Positions 21,964 through 35,774 are shown, numbered from the stretch's first letter. The stretch: 64,000 bases of DNA from an uncultured delta proteobacterium (GCA_963727445.1 CAVSGI010000013.1:320001-384000); one strand, 5' to 3'. Notes: generated by a model from the sequence alone, not told the origin. Translations and numbers: made by a program.

Positions 21964-22305
21964 TTGAAGATCGTCATGTACGTCCTGGCCGTGTTGGTCG
22001 GCCTTCTCGGTTTGGTCTTCGTCGCGGGGAACCAGGGCGAGGTGCTGCGCATCGTGGTCGGCGCGGTGTTGATCGCCGCAGCGATCGCCATGGTGGTCGC
22101 GGCGCGCATGCGCCCGCAGGTCACACAGCGGAACATCGTCCAGCGCATCGACGTGGGCGGTGACGTCCGCCTCGAAGAGCTGAAGTGCCAGAAGTGCGGG
22201 GCGACGCTCTCGAAGGAGGCGGTGACGGTGCACGAGGGAGCTGTGATGGTCGCGTGCCCCTACTGCCAGGCCAGCTACCAGATGGAGGAGGCGCCGAAAT
22301 GGTGA
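21964..22305 (+). CDS. Small two-TM membrane protein with C-terminal zinc ribbon
   Basis: GGAGG RBS before TTG; two hydrophobic helices; CQKC...CPYC; stop overlaps next ATG (TGATG). Confidence 0.8.
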   Translation: MKIVMYVLAVLVGLLGLVFVAGNQGEVLRIVVGAVLIAAAIAMVVAARMRPQVTQRNIVQRIDVGGDVRLEELKCQKCGATLSKEAVTVHEGAVMVACPYCQASYQMEEAPKW

Positions 22306-23897
22306 TGCTCTTTTCGAACGTGGCGCGCGCCATCCAGAAGGACGTGGGCGCCTTCTTCGGAGCGGTGCGCGGCGAAGACGAGGTCCCCATCCCGCGCGGG
22401 CTGAACACCTACCCGTTCACCGGAAATGGTGGGCAGACGCGGCTGCATCTCCGCGTTCAGGACGACGGAACCGGCCTGCTCTTTCGCGATGTCACCGACG
22501 TCATCCACCTGACCACCACCGCCACCGAGATGATCTGGATGGCCCTCGAGGGCTGGCCGCCGCGCCGGGCGCTCGGCGCGCTCTCGCGGCGCTACCGGGG
22601 CACGCGCGGGGACTTCGCGGCGGACTACGCGCGGATGCAGCGAGTGGTGCAGGTGTTGTCGACGCCCTCCGCCAGCTGTCACACCTGCGCCCTCGAGCTG
22701 CCGCAGGTGCCGCTCTTCAGCCAGCGCGCCCGCGCGCCGCACAAGGTCGACCTCGCGCTCACCTACGCCTGCAACAACCGCTGCCCGCACTGCTACAACG
22801 ACCCGGAGCGCTTCGACATGCGCGCGCTGCCGGTCGACGATTGGAAGCGCATCCTCGATCAGCTCGCGGAGGTCGGCGTCCCGCACGTGATCTTCACCGG
22901 CGGCGAAGCCACCGTCTACAAGGGCCTCGAAGAGCTCATCGCCCACGCCGACCAGGCGGGGATGATGACCGGGCTCAACTCCAACGGACGGCGCCTCCGC
23001 GATCGCGCGTACGTCGAACGGCTTCGCGACGCCGGCCTCGACCACGTGCAGATCACCCTCGAGAGCCACCACGCCGCGGTGCACGACGCCATGGTCGGCG
23101 CCCGCGCCTGGGAAGAATGCGTGGCCGGCGTGCGCGCCTGCGTCGAGACCGAGGGCCTCCACGTCATCACCAACACCACCATCACGCGCGTCAACGCCGC
23201 CGAGATCGGCGAGACGGTGGAGTTCCTGGGCGACCTGGGCCTGAGCACCTTCGCGATGAACGGGATGATCTACTCGGGCGGCGGCGACGCGAACCCCGAT
23301 GCCATCCCCCAGGACGCCCTGCCCTCGCTCCTGATCGAGGTCCGCGACACCGCCGAGGAGCGCGGGCTGCGGTTCCTCTGGTACACGGTCACCGAGTACT
23401 GCGAGATGAACCCGGTCGAGCTCGAGATCGGGGCCAAGCGCTGTAACGCAGGCGAGTACTCGATGTGCATCGAGCCGAACGGCGACGTGCTGCCCTGCCA
23501 GAGCTACTACATCTCCGCCGGGAACATGCTTCGAGATCCCTGGAGCGAGATCTGGCGCGGCGAGCTCTTCCGCTCCTTCCGCGACCGCGAGGACGATCCA
23601 GCGTGGGCGGGGCTCCCCGACAAGTGCCACACCTGCCCGGACCTGCCGCTCTGCGGCGGGGGCTGCCGCATCGAGCGCGAGTCTGCGGCGGGCGTGGCCC
23701 CGGGCGGCTGTCAGAGCTGCGCGAGCGGCGGACTCACGACGGGACGCGGGATCCGCTCGACAGGCGTCAGCGCCGCGAGCCACTGCACCTGCGGCGAAGG
23801 AGAGAGCGCCGGAGCCGGATGCGCGAGCGATGTGCACCGCGCACCGATGGGTCTCGTCACCCTGCGCATCCCGGAGCGGACGGAGGTCTCGCGATGA
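22305..23897 (+). CDS. Radical SAM/SPASM protein with N-terminal PqqD/RRE-like domain
   Basis: CNNRCPHC, FTGGE, SPASM CNAG...CIEPNGDVLPC and CHTCPDLPLCGGGC; alternative start ATG 22299. Confidence 0.92.
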   Translation: MLFSNVARAIQKDVGAFFGAVRGEDEVPIPRGLNTYPFTGNGGQTRLHLRVQDDGTGLLFRDVTDVIHLTTTATEMIWMALEGWPPRRALGALSRRYRGTRGDFAADYARMQRVVQVLSTPSASCHTCALELPQVPLFSQRARAPHKVDLALTYACNNRCPHCYNDPERFDMRALPVDDWKRILDQLAEVGVPHVIFTGGEATVYKGLEELIAHADQAGMMTGLNSNGRRLRDRAYVERLRDAGLDHVQITLESHHAAVHDAMVGARAWEECVAGVRACVETEGLHVITNTTITRVNAAEIGETVEFLGDLGLSTFAMNGMIYSGGGDANPDAIPQDALPSLLIEVRDTAEERGLRFLWYTVTEYCEMNPVELEIGAKRCNAGEYSMCIEPNGDVLPCQSYYISAGNMLRDPWSEIWRGELFRSFRDREDDPAWAGLPDKCHTCPDLPLCGGGCRIERESAAGVAPGGCQSCASGGLTTGRGIRSTGVSAASHCTCGEGESAGAGCASDVHRAPMGLVTLRIPERTEVSR

Positions 23898-25126
23898 CCA
23901 GCCCCCTCACCCACTTCTCCCGCGAGCGCGACGGTCAGGTCGCGCGCTATCACCTGCGCGTCGATCCCGACGGCTCGGGGATCCTCCTCGCCAACGCTTC
24001 GGCCGCGCTTCGCCTCTCACAAACCGGCGTGATCATCGCCCGCGGGATCCTCGAAGGCGCGAGCCCCGGGCGCATCTCCAAGGACCTCGCGCGCAAGTTC
24101 GCGCACGTCGACCGATCGAAGGCGAGCCAGGACGTCGACCGCGTCGGCAAGGCGATCGACGACCTCGCCCGCCCGCGTGACGGGATCGCGCTGACCAGCC
24201 TCGACGACCCAGATGCCACGCTGCACCGGCGCGCGCTCTCGGCGCCGCTCTGCGCCGAGGTGGTCACGCCCTCGGCGGGTCGAGCGAAGGAGATCGTCCA
24301 CCGCCTCTGGGACATCGGCATTCCGCAGGTGCGCTTCGTGCTTCCCGTGGGCCACAACGCCGGCCATCTCGTTCACCTGGTAGAGGCGGCGGAGGACGTG
24401 GGGATGATCACCGGCGTGCGCGCGCGGGCGTCGGACCTGATGCCGGAGACCGTGGTCCGCGGCCTGGCCATGGCGGGGCTCGACCACCTCGACCTGCTCT
24501 GGAGCGGTGTCGACCCGCAGATGCACGAGGACCTCTTCGGCGAAGGGGACCTCGCGCATGCGGAGAGGCTCCTCGCGCTCTGTCACGACCTCGAGCTCTT
24601 CCCGATCGCCGTCATGCCGTTGCTCGGGGCGATCCTCGACGATCTCGACGACCTGGGTCGCGTCCTCGCGAAGCATCGCATCGAGGCGCTGGTGGCTTAT
24701 GCCATCACCGACGAGGACGGGCAGGGTCGCGCACTGTCGAGCATCGAGCTCCCACAGGTGGCGACCAGCCTCGAAGAGGTGGCCGAGCACGGCAACATCA
24801 ACCTCGTATGGGCGGCGCCGGAAGAGCGCGACCCGTCGATCACGCTGGTGGAGCAGGTCGCGGCCGGACCGCGCGCCGCGGGCGAGGCCTGCATCCGCAT
24901 CGAGGCCGACGGGCGGGTGATCGCGCCCAACGGGCCGGCGACGATGGCGGGCAACCTCTTCGACGATCCCTGGGAAAAGATCTGGCAGGCCCCGATCTTC
25001 CACCACTGGCGCACGTCGGTGGACGATCCGCCGCGGTGCACGATGTGCCCGGGGCTCGCCCTCTGCGCCGCCGGCTGCCCGAAAGACCGCGCGACCTGGG
25101 CCACCCTTTCTGGAGGTGAGAAGTGA
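23894..25126 (+). CDS. Degenerate radical SAM/SPASM paralogue lacking CxxxCxxC, with RRE-like N-terminus
   Basis: ATGA overlap; HLRVDPDGSGILL matches HLRVQDDGTGLL of the upstream gene; no CxxxCxxC; retains CTMCPGLALCAAGC. Confidence 0.8.
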   Translation: MTSPLTHFSRERDGQVARYHLRVDPDGSGILLANASAALRLSQTGVIIARGILEGASPGRISKDLARKFAHVDRSKASQDVDRVGKAIDDLARPRDGIALTSLDDPDATLHRRALSAPLCAEVVTPSAGRAKEIVHRLWDIGIPQVRFVLPVGHNAGHLVHLVEAAEDVGMITGVRARASDLMPETVVRGLAMAGLDHLDLLWSGVDPQMHEDLFGEGDLAHAERLLALCHDLELFPIAVMPLLGAILDDLDDLGRVLAKHRIEALVAYAITDEDGQGRALSSIELPQVATSLEEVAEHGNINLVWAAPEERDPSITLVEQVAAGPRAAGEACIRIEADGRVIAPNGPATMAGNLFDDPWEKIWQAPIFHHWRTSVDDPPRCTMCPGLALCAAGCPKDRATWATLSGGEK

Positions 25127-26991
25127 TGCGCCGCCTCTCGACTTGGGCCGCCCTCACGGCCGCGACGATCGTGCTCCTCTTCCCGGCGCTGGCGACGGCT
25201 CCTGCCGCTGCGCAGACCTATGCGTTCTCCGTCCCGCAGGTGACGATGGAGTGCAGGGTCAACACCGACGCCTCGGTGCGCATCCACTACATCATCGAGT
25301 TCGAGAACAGCTCCTACGGCTCGCCCATCGACGTGGTCGACGTGGGGCTTCCCCACGACGATTACCGAATCTCGAACATGCGGGCGTCCCTCGACGGCGT
25401 GGAGACGCACGCCATCGCACCCTCCACCTACATCGACACCGGCGTCGAAGTGCACATCGGCGCCGGGATCCCGGCCGGGGCCCGCGGCGTCTTCGAGTTC
25501 ACGACGACCATGCCGGATCTCGTATTCTCGGACACGACCGACGATGCGCTGGCGTCGATACGCATCACGCCCACCTGGTTCGATGGAGCCCTCGTCACCG
25601 GCGACACCGATCTGCGCATCGCCATCGAGCTGCCGCCGGGCGTGAACGCCGAAGAGGTCCTGAATCAGGGCACGCCGTTCTACAACAAGGCCGACCTCGA
25701 CGATCACGCGCTTGTCGGCTTCCGCTTCGAGCACACGCGCTTCACCGAGGCGCACATGGTCGGCATCTCCTTCCCGCGCCGAGTGATGAGCCGCGTGGTG
25801 GAGATCACCAAGTGGGACCTCCTCGTGAAGTGGTGGGAAGACAACCCGAAGGTCCGCGTCATCGCCGGCATCCTGATGCTGCTGGTGTCGCTCCTCTTCT
25901 TCATGCGCTTCACCGGCTTCACCGGCTGGTCGGTCTTCATCTTCCTCGCAGGCGTGGTGGGGGTGCTCTGCTACTTCGCGCCGTTGGTGCAGCTGGTTCT
26001 GATCCCGGTCATCCCGGTGGTCGGCGCGCTCCTCGAATGGCGCACGCAGCGGAGAAAACGGACGTACCTGCCGCCCATCGCCTCGGTGGAAGGCGGCGGG
26101 ATCAAGCGCGGGCTCACCGCGCCCGAGGCCGCGGTGCTCCTCGAGCTGCCCCTGGGCCGGGTGCTGACGCTGGTCGTCTTCGGGATGCTGCGGAAGCGCC
26201 TGTTGATCCAGCAGAACCTCAAGCCGCTCACCGTGAGCATCGTCCCTGCCATCGCCCAGGCCAAGAAGCACAAGGCGCGGCGGCGGGCGGCGGCTCAGGC
26301 CGGGCTGGTGATCCACGCCTATGAGCACGCCTTCCTCGACGCCATCGACGACAGCCGCGGCCTCTCGGTGAACGAGGTCGACTTCGGCGCGGCGATGAAG
26401 AAGCTCGTCGAGCACGTCGCGGAGCGCGTGCTCGGCTTCGACGTGGACCAGACGAAGAAGTACTACCGGTATCAGATCCAGCGCGCGTGGACCGAGGCCG
26501 AGGCCATCGGCGAGCTAGACATGCGCACCAAGAAGGTCGACGAGAAGCTCGAGTGGTTGCTCATGGACGACGACTACGACGACCGCTTCTCGAGTTGGGG
26601 GACGGGCGGCTACTGGTACCGGCCCACCTGGGGCTACGTCCACACGGGCGGCGGCGTCGATCTCGGCAGCGTCGCCGACGCAGCGGCGTCCGCCGGCGGG
26701 GGCGCCATCGACCACACGCAGACGAGCTTCGGCGACGTGGCGGCGGGCTTCGCCGGGTGGACCGAGCGCGTCACCGGCCAGCTCTCGAACGCCATCCGGC
26801 CGGGCGACGTGAACGCGGCGGCCGCCGGCGGCGTCATCGATCTCTCCGGCGCCGACAAGGTGACGGGCGAGGTCCTCGAAGCCTTCTTCTCCAACAGCGG
26901 CGGCGGTGGCGGAGGTGGCGGCGGCGGGGGCTGCGCGTGCGCCTGCGCCGGCTGCGCGTGCGCGTGCGCCTGTGCCGGCGGCGGCCGATGA
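25126..26991 (+). CDS. DUF2207-like membrane protein with Gly-linker and (Cys-Ala)n C-terminal tail
   Basis: Signal peptide, VNTDASVRIHY exported domain, three TM helices, LTAPEAAVLL, YEHAFL, tail G11-CACACAGCACACACAGGGR. Confidence 0.82.
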   Translation: MRRLSTWAALTAATIVLLFPALATAPAAAQTYAFSVPQVTMECRVNTDASVRIHYIIEFENSSYGSPIDVVDVGLPHDDYRISNMRASLDGVETHAIAPSTYIDTGVEVHIGAGIPAGARGVFEFTTTMPDLVFSDTTDDALASIRITPTWFDGALVTGDTDLRIAIELPPGVNAEEVLNQGTPFYNKADLDDHALVGFRFEHTRFTEAHMVGISFPRRVMSRVVEITKWDLLVKWWEDNPKVRVIAGILMLLVSLLFFMRFTGFTGWSVFIFLAGVVGVLCYFAPLVQLVLIPVIPVVGALLEWRTQRRKRTYLPPIASVEGGGIKRGLTAPEAAVLLELPLGRVLTLVVFGMLRKRLLIQQNLKPLTVSIVPAIAQAKKHKARRRAAAQAGLVIHAYEHAFLDAIDDSRGLSVNEVDFGAAMKKLVEHVAERVLGFDVDQTKKYYRYQIQRAWTEAEAIGELDMRTKKVDEKLEWLLMDDDYDDRFSSWGTGGYWYRPTWGYVHTGGGVDLGSVADAAASAGGGAIDHTQTSFGDVAAGFAGWTERVTGQLSNAIRPGDVNAAAAGGVIDLSGADKVTGEVLEAFFSNSGGGGGGGGGGGCACACAGCACACACAGGGR

Positions 26992-27055: not shown

Positions 27056-27814
27056 ATGGCCGATATGAGCGAAGGCGCGCCGCCCAGCATCCCGCCAGAG
27101 TCGGTCCTTCGCGCCCAGGACGCGCTGATCGCGCCGATGCGCTCGCGCATCCTGCGGCGCATCGGCATCGGCCACCGCGGGCCCGTCCTCGACCTCGGCG
27201 CGGGGCCGGGGGTGGTGAGCGCGGAGCTGTTGCGGCGGAGCCGCGGTCCGGTGGTCGCCCTCGATCGCGATCCCATCGTGAAGAAGGCGCCCGCCGACGA
27301 GCGCGTCGTCGCCGACGCGACCGCCCTGCCCTTCGCCTCGGGCCGCTTCGCGCTCGTCTACGCGCAGTTCGTCTTTCTCTGGAACGACGCGGCGGCGCGA
27401 CGCCGCATCGCCGAGGAGATCGCTCGGGTGCTCTCACCGGACGGCGTGGTGGTGATCGTCGAGCCGGACTATCACGCCGCCATCGAGCACCCCCCCACCA
27501 TCGCCATCGCCCCGACCGCCGCCGCCGCCATCGCACGCGCGGGTGGGGTGCCCGACGTCGCCCGGCGCCTGCCGGCGGAGCTCTGTGAGGCGGGCCTGAC
27601 GGTGCGCATCGAGCAGAGCCCGGAGCTCGTCCCGCCCAATCCCGCGCGCTTCGCCGCGCTCGAAGGATTGCCGCTCACCGCCGAGGAGCAGGCGCGCATC
27701 GCGCAGGCGAAGAACGCTGACGCCGCGCTTCGCCCCGACGCCCGCTTCGCTCACGTACCGCTCTTCTTCTTCACTGCCGAGTCTGGGGCCTCGGGTCGAC
27801 GACGCGGCCCATGA
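27056..27814 (+). CDS. Class I SAM-dependent methyltransferase
   Basis: VLDLGAGPG, VVALDRD, ADATALPF, ARVLSPDG, EPDY. Confidence 0.85.
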   Translation: MADMSEGAPPSIPPESVLRAQDALIAPMRSRILRRIGIGHRGPVLDLGAGPGVVSAELLRRSRGPVVALDRDPIVKKAPADERVVADATALPFASGRFALVYAQFVFLWNDAAARRRIAEEIARVLSPDGVVVIVEPDYHAAIEHPPTIAIAPTAAAAIARAGGVPDVARRLPAELCEAGLTVRIEQSPELVPPNPARFAALEGLPLTAEEQARIAQAKNADAALRPDARFAHVPLFFFTAESGASGRRRGP

Positions 27815-29132
27815 AGAGGATCGTCCCCGAGCTCGGCTCGCGGATGGCGAAGAGGAAGGGGCGGTCGGCGCGGATCTCGATCGGCTCGGCGGGTCGCCCG
27901 CCGCCAAAGCCCATCGTGACCGCGGTGGCCGCGGCCGCCTCGGTCCCCTCTTCGTCCACCTTCACGAACACCTGGTGGTACGCCTCGCTCACATAGAGGC
28001 GCTCGTCGGGGTCGGCGGGGCGCCCGATGCCGAAGAAGTCGGCTGCGCCGTCGTCGAACGCGAGACGCATGCCGAGCGCCTTCAGGGCTGTGGAGAGGGT
28101 CATGCGGGTCGACATCTCGAAGCGCGGCATCACCAGGCGCACCCGGTCCTGTGAGAGAAGCCCGACCCATCGCTCGAACTGATCACCCGAGAGCTGGCCT
28201 TCGATGGCTGGCAGGCCCGTGGCCGAGTCGGGGATGATCAGCGTCATCACCAGCTCGTCGCCGCGGTAGGGCAGCTCGACCACCGTCACGTCGCCGCGAT
28301 GCGCGTGCTTCAGGTTCTCGGTCTGCCGCATCAGCGGCACCTCGATGGTCGAGCCATCGGCGAGAGTGAAGCGCTCGTCGCGAGTGAGCGCTGAATCGAA
28401 GGGCTCGGCCCACGCGCCCAGGAAATAGACGGCGTTGACCAGCACCAGGCCGGTGTCGGCGGTGATCGAAGTCGGGGGCAACAGATCGGTGATCCGCTCG
28501 CGTGTCTGTTGGGCGACCCATTCGTTGATGTGCTCGCGCTGCTCGTTCGGCGCGCCGTGGAAGTCCACGCCTTCGAAGGGCGCGGCGTAGGTGGTGCGCG
28601 TCAGCGTGAGGTAGTCCTGCTCGAAGCGAGCGCTCTGCTCGCCGAAGAGGCGATCCACGACGCGCAGCTCGTAATCCTCGCGGTTCGGATCGTTCCAGCG
28701 CGCGAGCACGCGGCCCGCGGCTTCGTGCACCGCGTCGGCGTCCCCAACGAGGCCCATGGTGCGCGCCATCTCCGCTGCGGTCTCACCCCGGGCGCCGCCG
28801 AAGACCATCTCGAAGGCGAGGGTGATGGAGGCCGGCGAGATCGCGAGATTGCCGTCGGCTCCGCGCGCCTGCCCGTAGATCGCGAAGCCGAAGGCGTTGC
28901 TGGTGCGAGCGAAGGCCGAGGCCTGCTCCGCCGTGGGCGGCTCCTGCTCGCGCGGCTCGGGGTTCGAGAAGAACGACTCCGGCGCTTCGTCGTTGCCGGC
29001 GCCCTCGCTTTCGGCCTCGGCCGTCTCCGGCGCTTCGGTGCTGATCTGCGGCGCGGACGGCTGCGTGACGGGCCCGTTCGTCCCGCACTTGCAGGCGCAG
29101 AGCGCCATCAAGACCACGAAGAATCGCCGCAT
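27771..29132 (-). CDS. Serpin (serine protease inhibitor), lipoprotein
   Basis: NLAISPASI, GARGET, LVNAVYFLGAW, hinge DEEGTEAAAAT, ADRPFLF, ILFMGRV; ATG 29132 with lipobox-like Cys. Confidence 0.95.
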   Translation of the reverse strand: MRRFFVVLMALCACKCGTNGPVTQPSAPQISTEAPETAEAESEGAGNDEAPESFFSNPEPREQEPPTAEQASAFARTSNAFGFAIYGQARGADGNLAISPASITLAFEMVFGGARGETAAEMARTMGLVGDADAVHEAAGRVLARWNDPNREDYELRVVDRLFGEQSARFEQDYLTLTRTTYAAPFEGVDFHGAPNEQREHINEWVAQQTRERITDLLPPTSITADTGLVLVNAVYFLGAWAEPFDSALTRDERFTLADGSTIEVPLMRQTENLKHAHRGDVTVVELPYRGDELVMTLIIPDSATGLPAIEGQLSGDQFERWVGLLSQDRVRLVMPRFEMSTRMTLSTALKALGMRLAFDDGAADFFGIGRPADPDERLYVSEAYHQVFVKVDEEGTEAAAATAVTMGFGGGRPAEPIEIRADRPFLFAIREPSSGTILFMGRVVDPRPQTRQ

Positions 29133-31320: not shown

Positions 31321-31489
<169 letters not shown>

Positions 31490-31502
31490 ACTATCCGGAT
31501 GA

Positions 31503-32689
31503 CTATTTCGTCCGGGGACCGTGCGCCGAGGCGGGGAAGAGCAGCGCCGCGACTTGGTCGCCCGCCTGCCTCGCCTCGTCCGGGAGCAGCGTCGAGTAAT
31601 GCTCCCGCATCCTGTCGGTTGCGTGCCCCACGAGGGACTTCGCGACCACTGGATCCACCTTCGCGCGCCTCAGAAGGTCGGTCATCGACCGCCTGAGCCC
31701 GTGCGAGGTGATGCGCTGCGTGATGCCCGCGCGAGCGCGGGCGGCGGCGAGCGCATCCGAGATACGCGCCGAGCCGAGGGGCGTCCCGACCCTGGATGGG
31801 AACATCAGCCCGCTCGACAAGCCGGGATGCTGCTCGCGAACGAGCCGCGCCCGATGCTCGCGGAGGAGCTCGAGCAGCACGCCCGGCACGCCGACCCATC
31901 GCGCCTTACCCGACTTCGTCGACGGCACGAGCTCGCCCTTCACCACCTTGCGGCGGACCCAGAGCACCCGCTCCTCCTCGACGAGGTCCGCGAACATCAA
32001 CGCCGACACCTCGCCCCAGCGAAGCCCGGTGAGCCCCTGCGTCCACGCCGCGGCCGCGAGCATCGGATCCCCGGCACGTAGCGCTTCGAGAAGCCGCGCC
32101 AGCTCACGCGGCGGCAGCGAGTTCGACTCCTCGAGGTTCGGCTGAACCTTGAGGAAGCGCACCTCCTCCGCCGGGTTGAACGTCAGCCCGACCGGCCGCC
32201 GCGCGTCGTTGAACATCGCGCGAAGCACCCGAAGCCAGCTGTTGATGGTCGCCGGTGCGTACTGAGCGAGCGACGCGATCATCCACCGCTCGATGTCGCC
32301 CGGCGCGACGTCGCGCATCGGCATCTCCGCGATGCGATCGCTGAGCCGGTCCAGCGCGAGCGCGTAGCGCTCGGCCGTCGACGCGTTCAGGTCACCGCGC
32401 GCGATCTTTCGCTCGAGCCACGAGCTCGCGAAATCGCCGACCACGACCGGGGCCGTCTTCGGCATCGGGCTCGGCCGGCTCACCGGCGGTCCCGAACATC
32501 GAACGTCCGGAGCAGCGCCTCGCGCGCCTCGATCGCTTCCTGCCGCGACACGTCCTCGAGAACGCGCCGCAGGTTCACGCGCTTGCCCGTCGACGGATCG
32601 ACCGGCTGCGCGCGCACGATCCACACTTTCCTCTTCAGTTGCCAAAGACCAGGCAGGACCCGCCGGCCCTGCTTTTCTGATTTCCTCAT
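31503..32689 (-). CDS. int: Tyrosine recombinase/integrase; N-terminal arm-binding domain (32480-32689) is out of frame by one base near 32492
   Basis: TGLRWGE, TKSGK, SHGLRR, VGH, MREHY catalytic set; GGAGG RBS before ATG 32689 (MRKSEKQ...LPGLWQL...DPSTGKR). Confidence 0.88.
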
Positions 32690-32906
32690 CGCGATACACC
32701 TCCGGGCGGAGGCGAGCCGCGTGAGCACGCCCTTCCAGCATAGCGAGGAGATCGACCCGACGAAACAGGAGCGTCCGCCCCCGCCGCCCGATCGGCGCCA
32801 CCTCCCCACGCTGCACCGCCATCAACAGCCCCCGGCGCGACCGATAGCGGAGGAAGACGCGCGCCTCCTCCGTCGTCATCAGCTCCTGAGATGGATCGCC
32901 GGCCAT
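32690..32906 (-). CDS. Excisionase-like HTH (HTH_17/MerR-like) whose frame overlaps the int 5' end; true 3' end uncertain
   Basis: LMTTEEARVFLRY...AVQRGEV...GRRG..LLFRRVDL. Confidence 0.7.
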
Positions 32907-33457
32907 GGGACGCCGGCGAACGTCGGTCGTCAGCGCAGCGATGGAAGGCTCCGAAATGGGGAGATCGTATTTCGGGGGGTGGGCTCGGCTCGTGGACGGT
33001 TCACTGCGCCAAGCTCGGGTCCTCGGTGCGGCGCCGAGTGTGCCAGCACCCATTCGACCAGCGATTCACCAGGTTGGCGACCAAGCGCTCCACCAAAGTA
33101 TTTGTCGGTGTCGCCTGGGTCACGCCTAGAGAACGTACGCATCCTCAGTCGAGCGGTCGATGTTTGTGTCCAAATACATCAGCCCGTTCGCTATCCGCCC
33201 GCCTGCGCGCCGGACCGGTCACCATGGAAACATCCAGCAAGCCCCGCTTCAGGTCTTGCAGCGATTCGACCCGACCTGGCGGTCGTCGAAGCGGCGAAGC
33301 CAGCCCCAAACGAGAGGACGCGGACACAGGGTGGTCGCGCCGCCTCTGCGGGCGCAGGCGAGGATGTGTGCTCCCGGTCCTTGTTTCCGTACATCGAGTC
33401 GTGGGTCAGTTGTGAGGGCGGGGAGGAAAGTATAGATGCATCCAGGGTCTCGGTCTC

Positions 33458-33877
33458 GTGGTGCTGGTGGCGATGCTGCCCGTGCCGAGACCCTGGAGAG
33501 AACGAGGAAACCAACGCGATGACCGCGATGTTGCCGGCGTGGAAAACGGGCGGCTCCTCATCGCGGCTACGGTGACCAATCTTTCCCTCGTTGTTGACGA
33601 TGTGCGCAGGTTCCCGCACGTCCGACGGTGGCACGAGGCGTCCCACGTGATGGCCATCCAAGCGTCGAGCGGCAGGATCTTCGTGGGCGGTCGAAGCTAC
33701 CGGCACACCAGCGACGGAGACGTCAACCAAGCGATCGTGTATCGGGTCGATGCTGGGGGGCTCATCTGGAGCGGAGCCTTGGGCGACGTGCGCGGATCCC
33801 CGGACGAGTGGGCGACCGACGTGGCCGTTCGGAGTGCTGGAGACCTCGTGATCTCGGCACGAATGATGGCGTTGTGA
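33458..33877 (+). pseudogene. Probable fragment of a beta-propeller protein
   Basis: GRIFVGG, GLIWSG..G...DEWATDVAV..GDLVIS blade-like motifs; no convincing start. Confidence 0.35.
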
Positions 33878-34664
33878 ACTCGCAGACCCGAAACGCCTCG
33901 ACGATCTTCTTGGCGATGACGCTGGCGGCGTGCGGGCAGTCCCATGACCCCGCTAACCCTGAGGAGGATGCCGCGATGGATGCGCCGATGGATGCACACG
34001 ACAGTGGCTTTGAGGCCGGAGCGGACTCGGCATCTCCTGATGCCGATGGCAGCACGTGGCGTCCGTGGGATGGTGGTCCTGAGGACTCGAGCGCGGGTGA
34101 CAGCGCCGAGATGGATTCCGGCCCGGTCTGCTCTGCGCGCGACGGGGGATGCCTGCCCGGAATCGAGACTTTCGAAATGGAGCCGTTTCCCGAGTTCGGC
34201 ATCGTATCGACGCCCTACATGTATCACTCCGGCCTCGTCTTGAGCATGCCGGTGCCAAACGATTTCGGGCAATCACCGGTGACCATGGTGCGCTGCGGCG
34301 CTTCGGGCTTCTTCGGTTTCCGCTGCAGTGAAGGCGCCCGTTTCATCCCGTCCGGCACCACGTTCATCGCCTCGGCCGAGATCGGTCTGCACTATGACTA
34401 CGTCGAGTTCACGCTTCCGGCGAATGCGAGCCTCGTCCGATTCCACGTGGCCGCGACATCCGACCTTTCCTCCCCCCCACCGTCCAGGCGATCGGCGTGA
34501 GCGTTGATGGTGTCGAGAGCTACGCGGTACCGCTAGTCGCCCCTCACTACACCCGCTGGGATGAGGGGGTGGTCGAGGTGCGCAGCGATGACGGGATCCG
34601 CAAGCTGCGCATCACTGTCGAGCCGCGCCGTCCCATCGCCATCGACGACATCAGCTGGGAGTAG
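33874..34664 (+). CDS. Lipoprotein cargo, frameshifted in a C7 run (34472-34478)
   Basis: Lipobox TLAA-C, D-rich linker; an extra C gives ...TVQAIGV...IAIDDISWE* ending at 34664. Confidence 0.6.
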
Positions 34665-34771
34665 CGGCCGTCAGCATCGAGGAGAACACTCGGGCGGCGT
34701 CGGGCACATCTGGCAGTAGGCGTCGATGCAGCGGTACAACGGCGCGGGGGTTCGGTCCTCGCACGCAAGAC

Positions 34772-35410
34772 TGGCGCGTCCCGCTCATCGAAGAGGATCT
34801 GTCGCTGGAAACCACGACCTTGCATCTCTCGATGGCCAGTCTGCTGCCACAAGAGGTTCTCGACGATCTGACCCGCCGATTCGGCGCTCGATTCTCCGAC
34901 CTCGACGAGCACGGTCGGCTCGCCGTGGCCACCGCCGCGGCGGAGGGGAAAGTCACCAACCGGATGCTGCAAGCCGTCACCACCGCGCACCCGCGCGACT
35001 TGACGCTGCTTCTCCAGCGCTTGGTCGCCGACGGCCTCCTCGAGCGTCACGGGGACCGCCAGGGTGCTTGGTACACGGCTCCCGAGGCTCCCAAAGCTGC
35101 TCCCCAAACCGCTCCCCAAACCTCCCCCCAAACCTCCCCCCAAACCCAAATCATCGAGGAAAACGAGGACCCCGTCGCCAAGGTGGCTGGGAAGTCCTGG
35201 GCGCGAAGAGAGGACGTCGAGCGTGCCATCCTCGCCCTCTGCAGAGGCCGATTTCGGACGGCCCGCGAGCTCGCGGATCAGCTCGGGCGGGCCGTCAAGA
35301 CGATCTCGCAGAACTACGTCTCACAGCTCGTTAAAGACGGGCGGCTCGAGCAGAAGGACCCGAGCAACCCTCAGAACCCTGACCAGGCCTACCGGACCGT
35401 CGAGAGCTGA
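34772..35410 (+). pseudogene. C-terminal remnant of an AlbA_2/HATPase_c_4 (RecG-C-like) winged-helix protein
   Basis: WRVPLIEE...LHLSMASLLP, EGKVTNRML, HPRDLT..LQRLV..GLL, NYVSQLV.DG.L...P.NP.NPDQAY; N-terminal domains absent. Confidence 0.6.
35099..35146 (+). repeat. Four 12-bp tandem repeats encoding (A/S)PQT
   Basis: GCTCCCCAAACC x2, TCCCCCCAAACC x2. Confidence 0.85.
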
Positions 35411-35547
35411 CGCCGCCGAACCTCGCGGCCCGCTGACTACCTGTTGACTACACCCCCGTGCCCAACCGTTCCCGTGCGTGCTCACGCGATGTCGCCAACG
35501 CCGCGTCTTCGTTCAATTCACAAATCGGGTCGGGGACGGTTGGGCCA

Positions 35548-35686
35548 TTGCCAAGGTTGAAGTCGTGGGTTCGAATCCCATGTCCCGCTCCACGAGACTT
35601 CGCTTAGAGGGGTAGTGATTTCGGCTGGTTGGCGATTCGTCGACCGGCCGAAGTCGTATCTGGGATCTGAGCGTCGAGCCACGTTG
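35548..35686 (+). repeat. att site, right copy: displaced 3' half of tRNA-Gly plus 94 bp of downstream DNA
   Basis: Starts TTGCCAAGGTTGAAGTCGTGGGTTCGAATCCCATGTCCCGCTCCA. Confidence 0.92.
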
Positions 35687-35774
35687 GTGGACGCTGTCCT
35701 TCAGTCGTGCTTCGCGAGTCTTGCAGGCCCTTCGATAGCCCCGCTCTGCCAGGTGGCCGGCGTACAATGCCGAC

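Follow-up and report, generated by a model that had tools for sequence, protein, structure and literature searches.

A near-invariant Cys-Ala tail on a bacterial membrane protein, a probable substrate of a co-inherited RRE-radical SAM-SPASM enzyme

The window analysed here is a stretch of 64,000 nt from the genome of an uncultured delta proteobacterium (GCA_963727445.1, CAVSGI010000013.1:320001-384000). It contains an operon in which genes for a zinc-ribbon membrane protein, an active radical SAM enzyme, a dead paralog of this enzyme and a membrane protein with a Cys-Ala tail (hereafter the carrier) follow one another with overlapping starts and stops; a methyltransferase gene comes next (Table 1). 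A promoter scan of the region found none, and terminator-like sites numbered four versus 1.6 in shuffled sequences. The zinc-ribbon protein has only sub-threshold zinc-ribbon matches and goes with unnamed Atlas clusters (0.97-0.98). A short motif in this protein, RIDVGGD (22122-22185), looks like VIDLSGAD in the pre-tail region of the carrier (26830-26860); the similarity may be due to chance. Further downstream, a tRNA-like stretch (~31330-31400) and its partial repeat (~35550-35620) flank an integrase-like ORF (31503-33053, minus strand); the region 31330-35750 is probably a small integrated element.

Table 1. Features of the operon and of flanking genes (positions counted from the first nucleotide of the window)
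Feature	Position	Strand	Basis or remark
LolC/E-type permease, acidic insertion of ~170 residues	20233-21921	+	
Small membrane protein, 113 aa, two N-terminal hydrophobic segments and CxxC...CxxC zinc ribbon	21964-22305	+	First operon gene
RRE-radical SAM-SPASM enzyme, 531 aa, proposed maturase	22302-23897	+	Pfam Radical_SAM 92.6 bits, SPASM 48 bits, above cut-off
RRE-type N-terminal domain, residues ~33-120, strands then three helices	22398-22661	+	Secondary structure of the model
Intact CxxxCxxC (C157, C161, C164)	22770-22793	+	Sequence; conserved in all active clades
SPASM cysteines C367, C381, C389, C399, C442, C445, C451, C455	23400-23666	+	Alignment
Pseudo-radical SAM/SPASM paralog, 410 aa	23894-25126	+	RRE kept, weak PqqD matches
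Carrier membrane protein, 621 aa	25126-26991	+	Start overlaps upstream stop; no Pfam/NCBIfam family
Probable signal peptide ending AAA/Q (cleavage AAA|Q)	25126-25212	+	Hydrophobic segment 7-25, sequence pattern
Extracytoplasmic beta-sandwich, ribophorin I (Ost1)/M1 peptidase N-domain fold	25213-25806	+	Structure comparison, Foldseek
Three TM helices, then RTQRRKR	25846-26061	+	AlphaFold2 model, hydropathy, sequence
Inner domain, GOLPH3/Vps74-like fold	26110-26778	+	Structure comparison
Conserved helix (SGxDxxT) before the spacer, candidate RRE-binding 'leader'	26845-26889	+	Role inferred
Gly11 spacer, exactly 11 codons	26899-26931	+	Homologues vary in length and letters (G/S/R/H)
Cys-Ala tail CACACAGCACACACAGGGR and stop TGA, proposed core	26932-26991	+	Sequence, homologue alignment
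Class I SAM-dependent methyltransferase, common but optional	27056-27814	+	Pfam Methyltransf_11 48.7 bits; start codon inferred
Bacterial serpin, probable lipoprotein-type N-terminus, convergent with methyltransferase	27771-29126	-	Pfam 357 bits

A reading of the sequence alone (the sequence-only reading) had described the end of the carrier as 11 Gly, a Cys-Ala tail and a stop codon, a description borne out when the coordinates (26899-26991) were read again: the tail, CACACAGCACACACAGGGR, is composed of C, A, G and R only and has seven Cys in mixed codons. The spacings CxxC and CxxCxxxC occur in Cys-Ala tails, and the seven-Cys form also has CxxxCxxC. In a six-frame scan of the 9.47-Mb genome (68.8% GC) the motif was unique.

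All 120 best homologues of the carrier (self included) have the Cys-Ala tail and 117 end exactly with CACAGCACACACAGGGR; this ranking is biased toward proteins sharing the tail. Of 8000 scored proteins, 885 were homologues with E ≤ 0.001. With a tail-free query (carrier body only) matches were obtained in 7 of 401 genomes of the same phylum and in 37 of 251 genomes of Anaerolineae; the tail was present in 7/7 and, among strong Anaerolineae matches, in 36/36 (a count that omits a second carrier copy in one genome). For the 41 distinct tails from the body-only searches, the last 10 residues are identical in all 820 pairs, while the mean number of nucleotide differences is 5.9 per pair, i.e. synonymous change is free. 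Since these residues stay unchanged despite such freedom, the tail is, judged from the sequences, under strict selection. A microsatellite or frameshift artefact is ruled out on the same grounds, and the earlier argument that mixed codons speak against a slippage microsatellite holds, the protein being fixed while nucleotides differ.

Loss of the tail among homologues, which the sequence-only reading had named as evidence against its proposal, was not what we saw: at 50% identity, 123 of 150 representatives have the tail and 120 of the 123 end with CACAGGGR. The GGGR end is thus conserved as anticipated (a few tails end with GGGV or GGGA instead), but the Cys count, also expected to be constant, varies mostly from six to eight (7 Cys in 85 tails, 6 in 24, 8 in 10 and other numbers in 4). 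A central Gly that breaks the phase of the alternation is kept in 120/123 tails. Not one of the 27 representatives without the tail is a complete protein that simply ends differently; 25 of them stop at or before position 501 of the 588-position profile, and the other two stop at 552 and 560, one continuing into unrelated sequence. A pattern scan of GTDB genomes found at least 125 tail stretches; the matches listed come from Chloroflexota, Planctomycetota, Armatimonadota, Myxococcota, Hydrogenedentota, Elusimicrobiota, Nitrospirota and Bacillota and also include records labelled Pseudomonadota. One carrier representative is archaeal.

In the AlphaFold2 model of the carrier (pLDDT 86.7; below 50 in the spacer) an outer beta-sandwich is followed by three TM helices (residues 241-263, 268-284 and 286-309) and an inner helical domain; three TM helices and the basic RTQRRKR, as claimed earlier, are seen both in the model and in the sequence. 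The outer domain (model residues 30-222) is similar to ribophorin I/Ost1 (6c26; Z 14.7, rmsd 2.8, 179 residues aligned). The inner domain (329-552) matches GOLPH3 (3kn1) with a middling Z of 7.5 (rmsd 3.7, 160 aligned) and Vps74 (2zih) with Z 6.1, the GOLPH3-like match being obtained with the whole carrier model only. A search of PDB sequences with the carrier profile gave nothing significant, nor was the match to the FibroRumin peptide family TIGR04135 (E 0.5) significant. A second carrier subfamily (loci L178-L197) has the tail CACACACAG-CACACA-GGGR, with the CxxxCxxC spacing within the tail itself, the gene order zinc ribbon-carrier-enzyme and another motif in place of the SGxDxxT helix. 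Some loci have tandem carrier paralogs, both tailed (seven cases); at these loci there is an inserted gene with a weak match to the methionine-synthase activation domain (PF02965, 21.1 bits).

Topology was assessed across the family, with 25 of 139 alignment rows set aside for absence of the anchor motif. An N-terminal hydrophobic segment is present in 105 of 112 members; hydropathy indicates a single TM segment in 33/42 proteins of the second subfamily and two or three in 63/71 proteins of the window's subfamily, and the mean numbers of K/R are 4.2 and 2.9 after the last TM segment versus 1.2 and 1.8 before the first. The N-terminal segment, the K/R excess and the one-TM subfamily point to an inside, cytoplasmic location of the tail, the orientation that the sequence-only reading had favoured. 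Were a fourth hydrophobic stretch (337-355) to span the membrane, the tail would come to lie outside; in the carrier model this stretch is packed within the inner domain.

Gene neighbourhoods were counted in 75 distinct loci, 69 of them with this carrier family. Of 53 loci in which the upstream DNA is long enough, 49 have the enzyme or its paralog next to the carrier; three of the four exceptions were checked and the pair was found elsewhere in the genome. Where 6 kb or more of upstream sequence is available, 36 of 47 loci have the zinc-ribbon gene (18/19 in the second subfamily); where 0.9 kb or more is available downstream, 45 of 63 have the methyltransferase gene (8/19 in the second subfamily). 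Neither a peptidase nor an E1-like enzyme nor an exporter recurs among neighbours in the 75 clustered loci and the second-subfamily loci, and the clustering of the 75 loci gave no recurrent MNIO (DUF692) neighbour. Among 1932 small ORFs in 93 loci none is conserved, and no conserved small precursor peptide was found; the idea of a hidden one was rejected for this reason.

The association is also visible at the level of genomes. In 251 Anaerolineae genomes the carrier was found in 36 and the enzyme (E ≤ 1e-100) in 38, all 36 being within the 38; in two genomes the enzyme is present and no tail was found. In 401 genomes of the window's own phylum the enzyme occurs in six, all of which are among the seven with the carrier; the seventh carrier contig ends within the paralog gene. 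A divergent enzyme was detected in 4 of 250 genomes of Clostridia (one genome was left unscored), each time adjoining a shorter carrier with the tail. In this mostly Clostridial version (L045:7931-10455, L219-L221, L022, L043) the tail continues after GGGR as [AV]GCS..., some tails have no central Gly, and the enzyme has Cys for one auxiliary cluster only. The proposal that the tail is within reach of an Fe-S enzyme thus gained a concrete candidate, the RRE-bearing radical SAM/SPASM enzyme inherited with the carrier.

The nearest relatives of the window enzyme are from Polyangiaceae, which makes a myxobacterial host probable. Its top PDB match, both by fold and by sequence, is SkfB (Z 26.5, rmsd 3.9, 351 aligned, residues 46-456), with SuiB also among the best; its N-terminal domain aligns with those of SkfB and SuiB. 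The Pfam PqqD model has no match in the window enzyme and is above cut-off in one sister-clade enzyme. The eight SPASM Cys are invariant in the 18+7+13 two-cluster Cys-Ala-linked enzymes examined; all but C389 are invariant in 26/26 enzymes linked to the sister (CHSA)n tails described below. C389 is present in 38/38 two-cluster Cys-Ala enzymes; enzymes of the Clostridial and CHSA clades lack it. C381, C399 and C455 map onto three ligands of the first auxiliary cluster of CteB; this cluster is open and binds substrate sulfur in CteB, PapB and Tte1186 (PMC10177961). The Cys equivalent to C367 is a ligand in SuiB and unbound in the SkfB crystal (PMC6231123), and the invariant extra C367 may close the first auxiliary cluster as its fourth ligand. 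Closure would count against the thioether reading given below.

We also compared six positions lining the active site, as defined in PMC10288494 and mapped onto the enzyme by motif. The window enzyme has Y, T, S, T, Q and S at these positions; by this mapping four of six are the same as in SkfB and none as in PqqE or CteB. In nearly all of 44 Cys-Ala-linked enzymes, among them the Clostridial ones on long branches, the residues are Y, T, S/T, T, Q, S; CHSA-linked enzymes (n = 26) have Y, T, T, S, S, S. The paralog, which shares 23% identity with the active enzyme across 440 columns, has no CxxxCxxC and no Cys for the first auxiliary cluster while retaining CxxCx5Cx3C (the motif loss was seen in 15/15 cases). 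It is missing beside the carrier in at least eight loci bearing the same tail and is therefore not required for recognition everywhere.

A second tier of enzyme matches (39 with E from 1e-50 to 1e-70) goes with carriers whose tails are of the type (CHSA)n. Such a tail was found at 25 of 32 second-tier loci examined and elsewhere in six of the seven remaining genomes (31/32); the Cys-Ala tail was found at none of the 32. The CHSA carriers (L195, L200, L213, L222-L301, L347-L357) are related to the window carrier; their tails have 7-11 Cys, include CVHD and end otherwise than with GGGR, Ala-Cys being the unit common to both tail types. Often a gene for a protein with four TM segments (25 loci) or for a zinc-ribbon protein with a coiled coil (23 loci) is found nearby. 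A metagenome scan added at least 120 (CHSA)n stretches; 49 loci had an ORF with such a stretch, of which 42 match the carrier profile, and the enzyme was present in 35 of 38 loci with downstream DNA. Two genomes hold both systems, each with a separate enzyme. Several Anaerolineae also have ordinary DUF2207 genes, their products ending in plain Gly, at a distance of less than 10 kb from a CHSA system (six loci).

A tree of 45 rows built with IQ-TREE (random thinning left no more than nine rows per group, and there were only four long-branch outgroups) places Cys-Ala enzymes on one side of a branch (99/95) and CHSA enzymes on another (87/98); a further tree of 95 rows was built with FastTree. 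Tail subtypes change six times on the tree versus 29.3 times in shuffles, one subtype being weakly supported (47/93). Tail type thus follows enzyme clade. Genes of one operon are inherited together, so this match is no proof of co-evolution through the substrate; it could arise from operon inheritance alone, although the two genomes with both systems keep the enzymes separate.

We consider it probable that the enzyme acts on the cytoplasmic tail of the carrier, because a near-invariant tail is inherited together with an enzyme of the peptide-cross-linking type across many phyla. As to the product, by analogy with StsB and SkfB there is about an even chance that the tail is a RiPP-style core borne by a membrane protein and receives Cys-to-carbon thioethers. 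The RRE-radical SAM-SPASM enzyme would bind the C-terminal region of the carrier and abstract H atoms from the tail; Cys sulfurs would then be joined to carbons of facing Ala or Gly in sactionine-type thioethers. The central Gly would make the tail mirror-complementary, each Cys standing opposite Ala or Gly in a hairpin; Clostridial tails that have no central Gly fall outside the scope of this argument and count against it. The product would be a stiff, cross-linked hairpin still tethered to the membrane on the carrier. The dead paralog may serve as a binding partner and the methyltransferase as an optional tailoring enzyme. What the product is for is the least certain point; our guess is a module that binds metal or takes part in signalling, borne by a trans-envelope protein.

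Several other readings have to be weighed against thioether formation. The Cys could be oxidised at C-beta and closed into 5-thiooxazoles as by SbtM, which would make the system an O2-independent counterpart, built on a membrane scaffold, of MNIO-made copper-binding peptides. SbtM, a SPASM enzyme, converts the Cys of Gly-Cys to thiooxazole (PMC9204691), the Ala-Cys unit is shared by the two tail types, and C367 may fully ligate the first cluster, as in anSME. What makes this chemistry plausible is the MNIO-linked TIGR04222 proteins: membrane proteins of that family with Cys tails adjoin MNIO enzymes (PMC12452194), and the carrier family matches TIGR04222 weakly (E 4e-6 and 1e-9). We still rate it as unlikely, the SbtM family being absent from the best 25 NCBIfam matches of the enzyme, both fold and active-site residues pointing toward SkfB, and the phase break at the central Gly, kept in nearly all tails, being left unexplained. 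A different radical reaction on the tail, for instance one that epimerises every second residue or forms non-alpha links (Ala C-beta, lanthionine-like), would suit the alternating pattern; epimerases use an extra Cys as H donor, and C389 could play this role. Non-alpha links are made by CrpC at ACAGM-like motifs (PMC13692751). However, C389 is missing in two clades (Clostridial and CHSA), EpeE is a much poorer fold match than SkfB (Z 16.8 versus 26.5) and the active-site residues are unlike those of the ranthisynthase CteB, so that such chemistry, too, seems improbable.

The tail might instead stay unmodified, its thiols binding metal or an Fe-S cluster, with the enzyme loading the site or acting elsewhere. 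The Cys spacings of the tail, the Cys/His-rich sister tail, the zinc-ribbon partner frequent in both systems and the two genomes with the enzyme and no tail agree with this reading. Metal sites, on the other hand, seldom require invariant Ala spacers or a fixed GGGR end; moreover, the RRE-SPASM architecture is that of peptide maturases, the 93 loci offered no other conserved peptide substrate and the two tail types go with separate enzyme clades. We regard an unmodified metal site as a minor possibility. Far less probable is processing at GG-R, suggested in the sequence-only reading, in which removal of Arg would leave a bare di-Gly for sulfur transfer or conjugation, or the tail would be released as a peptide. 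GGGR is nearly invariant, which agrees with it, as does the extension of Clostridial forms beyond GGGR. The suggestion found no support in the neighbourhoods, where no peptidase is conserved and no E1-like enzyme or exporter recurs, and tails ending with GGGV or GGGA, as well as the different ends of CHSA tails, speak against it.

Thioether formation on the tail could be part of a broader picture, which we put forward tentatively and hold to be rather doubtful: DUF2207/TIGR04222-like trans-envelope proteins may form a family of scaffolds, ribophorin-like on the outside and GOLPH3-like on the inside, with swappable cores, each core exchanged together with its dedicated enzyme. One radical SAM clade would serve (CA)n tails, its sister clade (CHSA)n tails and MNIO enzymes other tails, and the (CA)n enzyme with its dead paralog may write a two-way thioether zipper on a Gly-centred hairpin, giving a cross-linked module tethered to the membrane in bacteria and archaea.

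To our knowledge, cross-linking by radical SAM enzymes has been described for small peptides and for two soluble proteins; if true, the proposed modification would extend it to the tail of an integral membrane protein. Examined loci span at least nine named bacterial phyla and one archaeal carrier. The substrate is a large protein with 1.4% Cys, and such a class would therefore be missed by precursor mining. The CHSA sister pair provides a natural specificity control, and the system offers a way to approach what DUF2207-like proteins do. A literature search, mostly of open-access texts, found no description of a Cys-Ala carrier/enzyme system, so comparison is with systems related in part.

The carrier had been called DUF2207-like, and a remote kinship is indeed visible, though not as a Pfam match. 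DUF2207 proteins (PF09972, PF20990) likewise combine an outer beta-sandwich, a TM block, an inner domain and a Gly/Ser end; DUF2207 Atlas neighbours of the carrier score 0.93-0.95, and a plain DUF2207 protein matches the carrier profile at ~44 bits. Neither Pfam model matches the window carrier at E ≤ 0.1 or the 12 other Cys-Ala carriers chosen for the scan at E ≤ 0.05; of two CHSA carriers, one passes PF09972 (30.9/24.4). Unlike the carrier, ordinary DUF2207 proteins in the examined loci end with plain Gly. Knockout of a DUF2207 gene (SMU.243) in S. mutans alters stress tolerance (PMC10457818). TIGR04222 (cut-off 43) has no match in the window carrier and gives 16.8, 26.6 and 38.1 bits for its relatives. 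TIGR04222 membrane proteins beside MNIO genes have a Ser/Gly-rich, Cys-bearing end, proposed as a substrate of the RiPP enzyme; their diverse tails are predicted to be periplasmic (PMC12452194) and the enzyme is an MNIO, while the window system has a radical SAM enzyme. Overall, the carrier is a remote relative of DUF2207 and TIGR04222, below both cut-offs.

Among peptide-modifying systems, StsA/StsB and SkfA/SkfB are similar in relying on an RRE-dependent radical SAM enzyme, and StsA also in its CxCxC donors. The CxCxC of StsA gets three nested Cys-Gly sactionines, StsB linking alternate Gly in a hairpin (PMC10288494). StsA and SkfA, however, are small free leader peptides, whereas here the core ends a 621-aa membrane protein and has Cys on both arms. 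The window enzyme has the CxxxCxxC, SPASM/twitch and RRE expected of a sactipeptide system, and the 93 loci have no conserved small ORF for the stand-alone precursor also expected of one. The enzyme is below the cut-off of every named NCBIfam among the matches listed (score/cut-off: StsB 96.7/625, SkfB 83.2/300, AlbA 55/850); similarity over the full length says little about the chemistry of enzymes in this group (PMC10288494). SbtM is similar as a SPASM enzyme acting on peptide Cys, its substrate being a small Sec-containing peptide with a GGUG motif (PMC9204691).

Also similar in part are CrpA/CrpC of Methanococcus voltae (TIGR04463) and QhpC/QhpD, in which RRE-radical SAM-SPASM enzymes make thioethers on a protein with C-terminal Cys motifs; the substrate of CrpC is a whole protein, cross-linked at ACAGM and similar motifs (PMC13692751). 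CrpA has a mass of 29 kDa, ten repeats of 17 residues and C-x-x-Q/D motifs, and the main text of the same paper does not contain the word 'membrane'; the carrier would fail the Cys filter used there. The acceptor motif of ranthisynthases and CrpC, C-x-x-(x)-D/E/Q, is absent from the tail, and TIGR04463 is not among the best 25 matches of the enzyme. The window system works like a sactipeptide or Crp system, yet it falls outside the named families of both.
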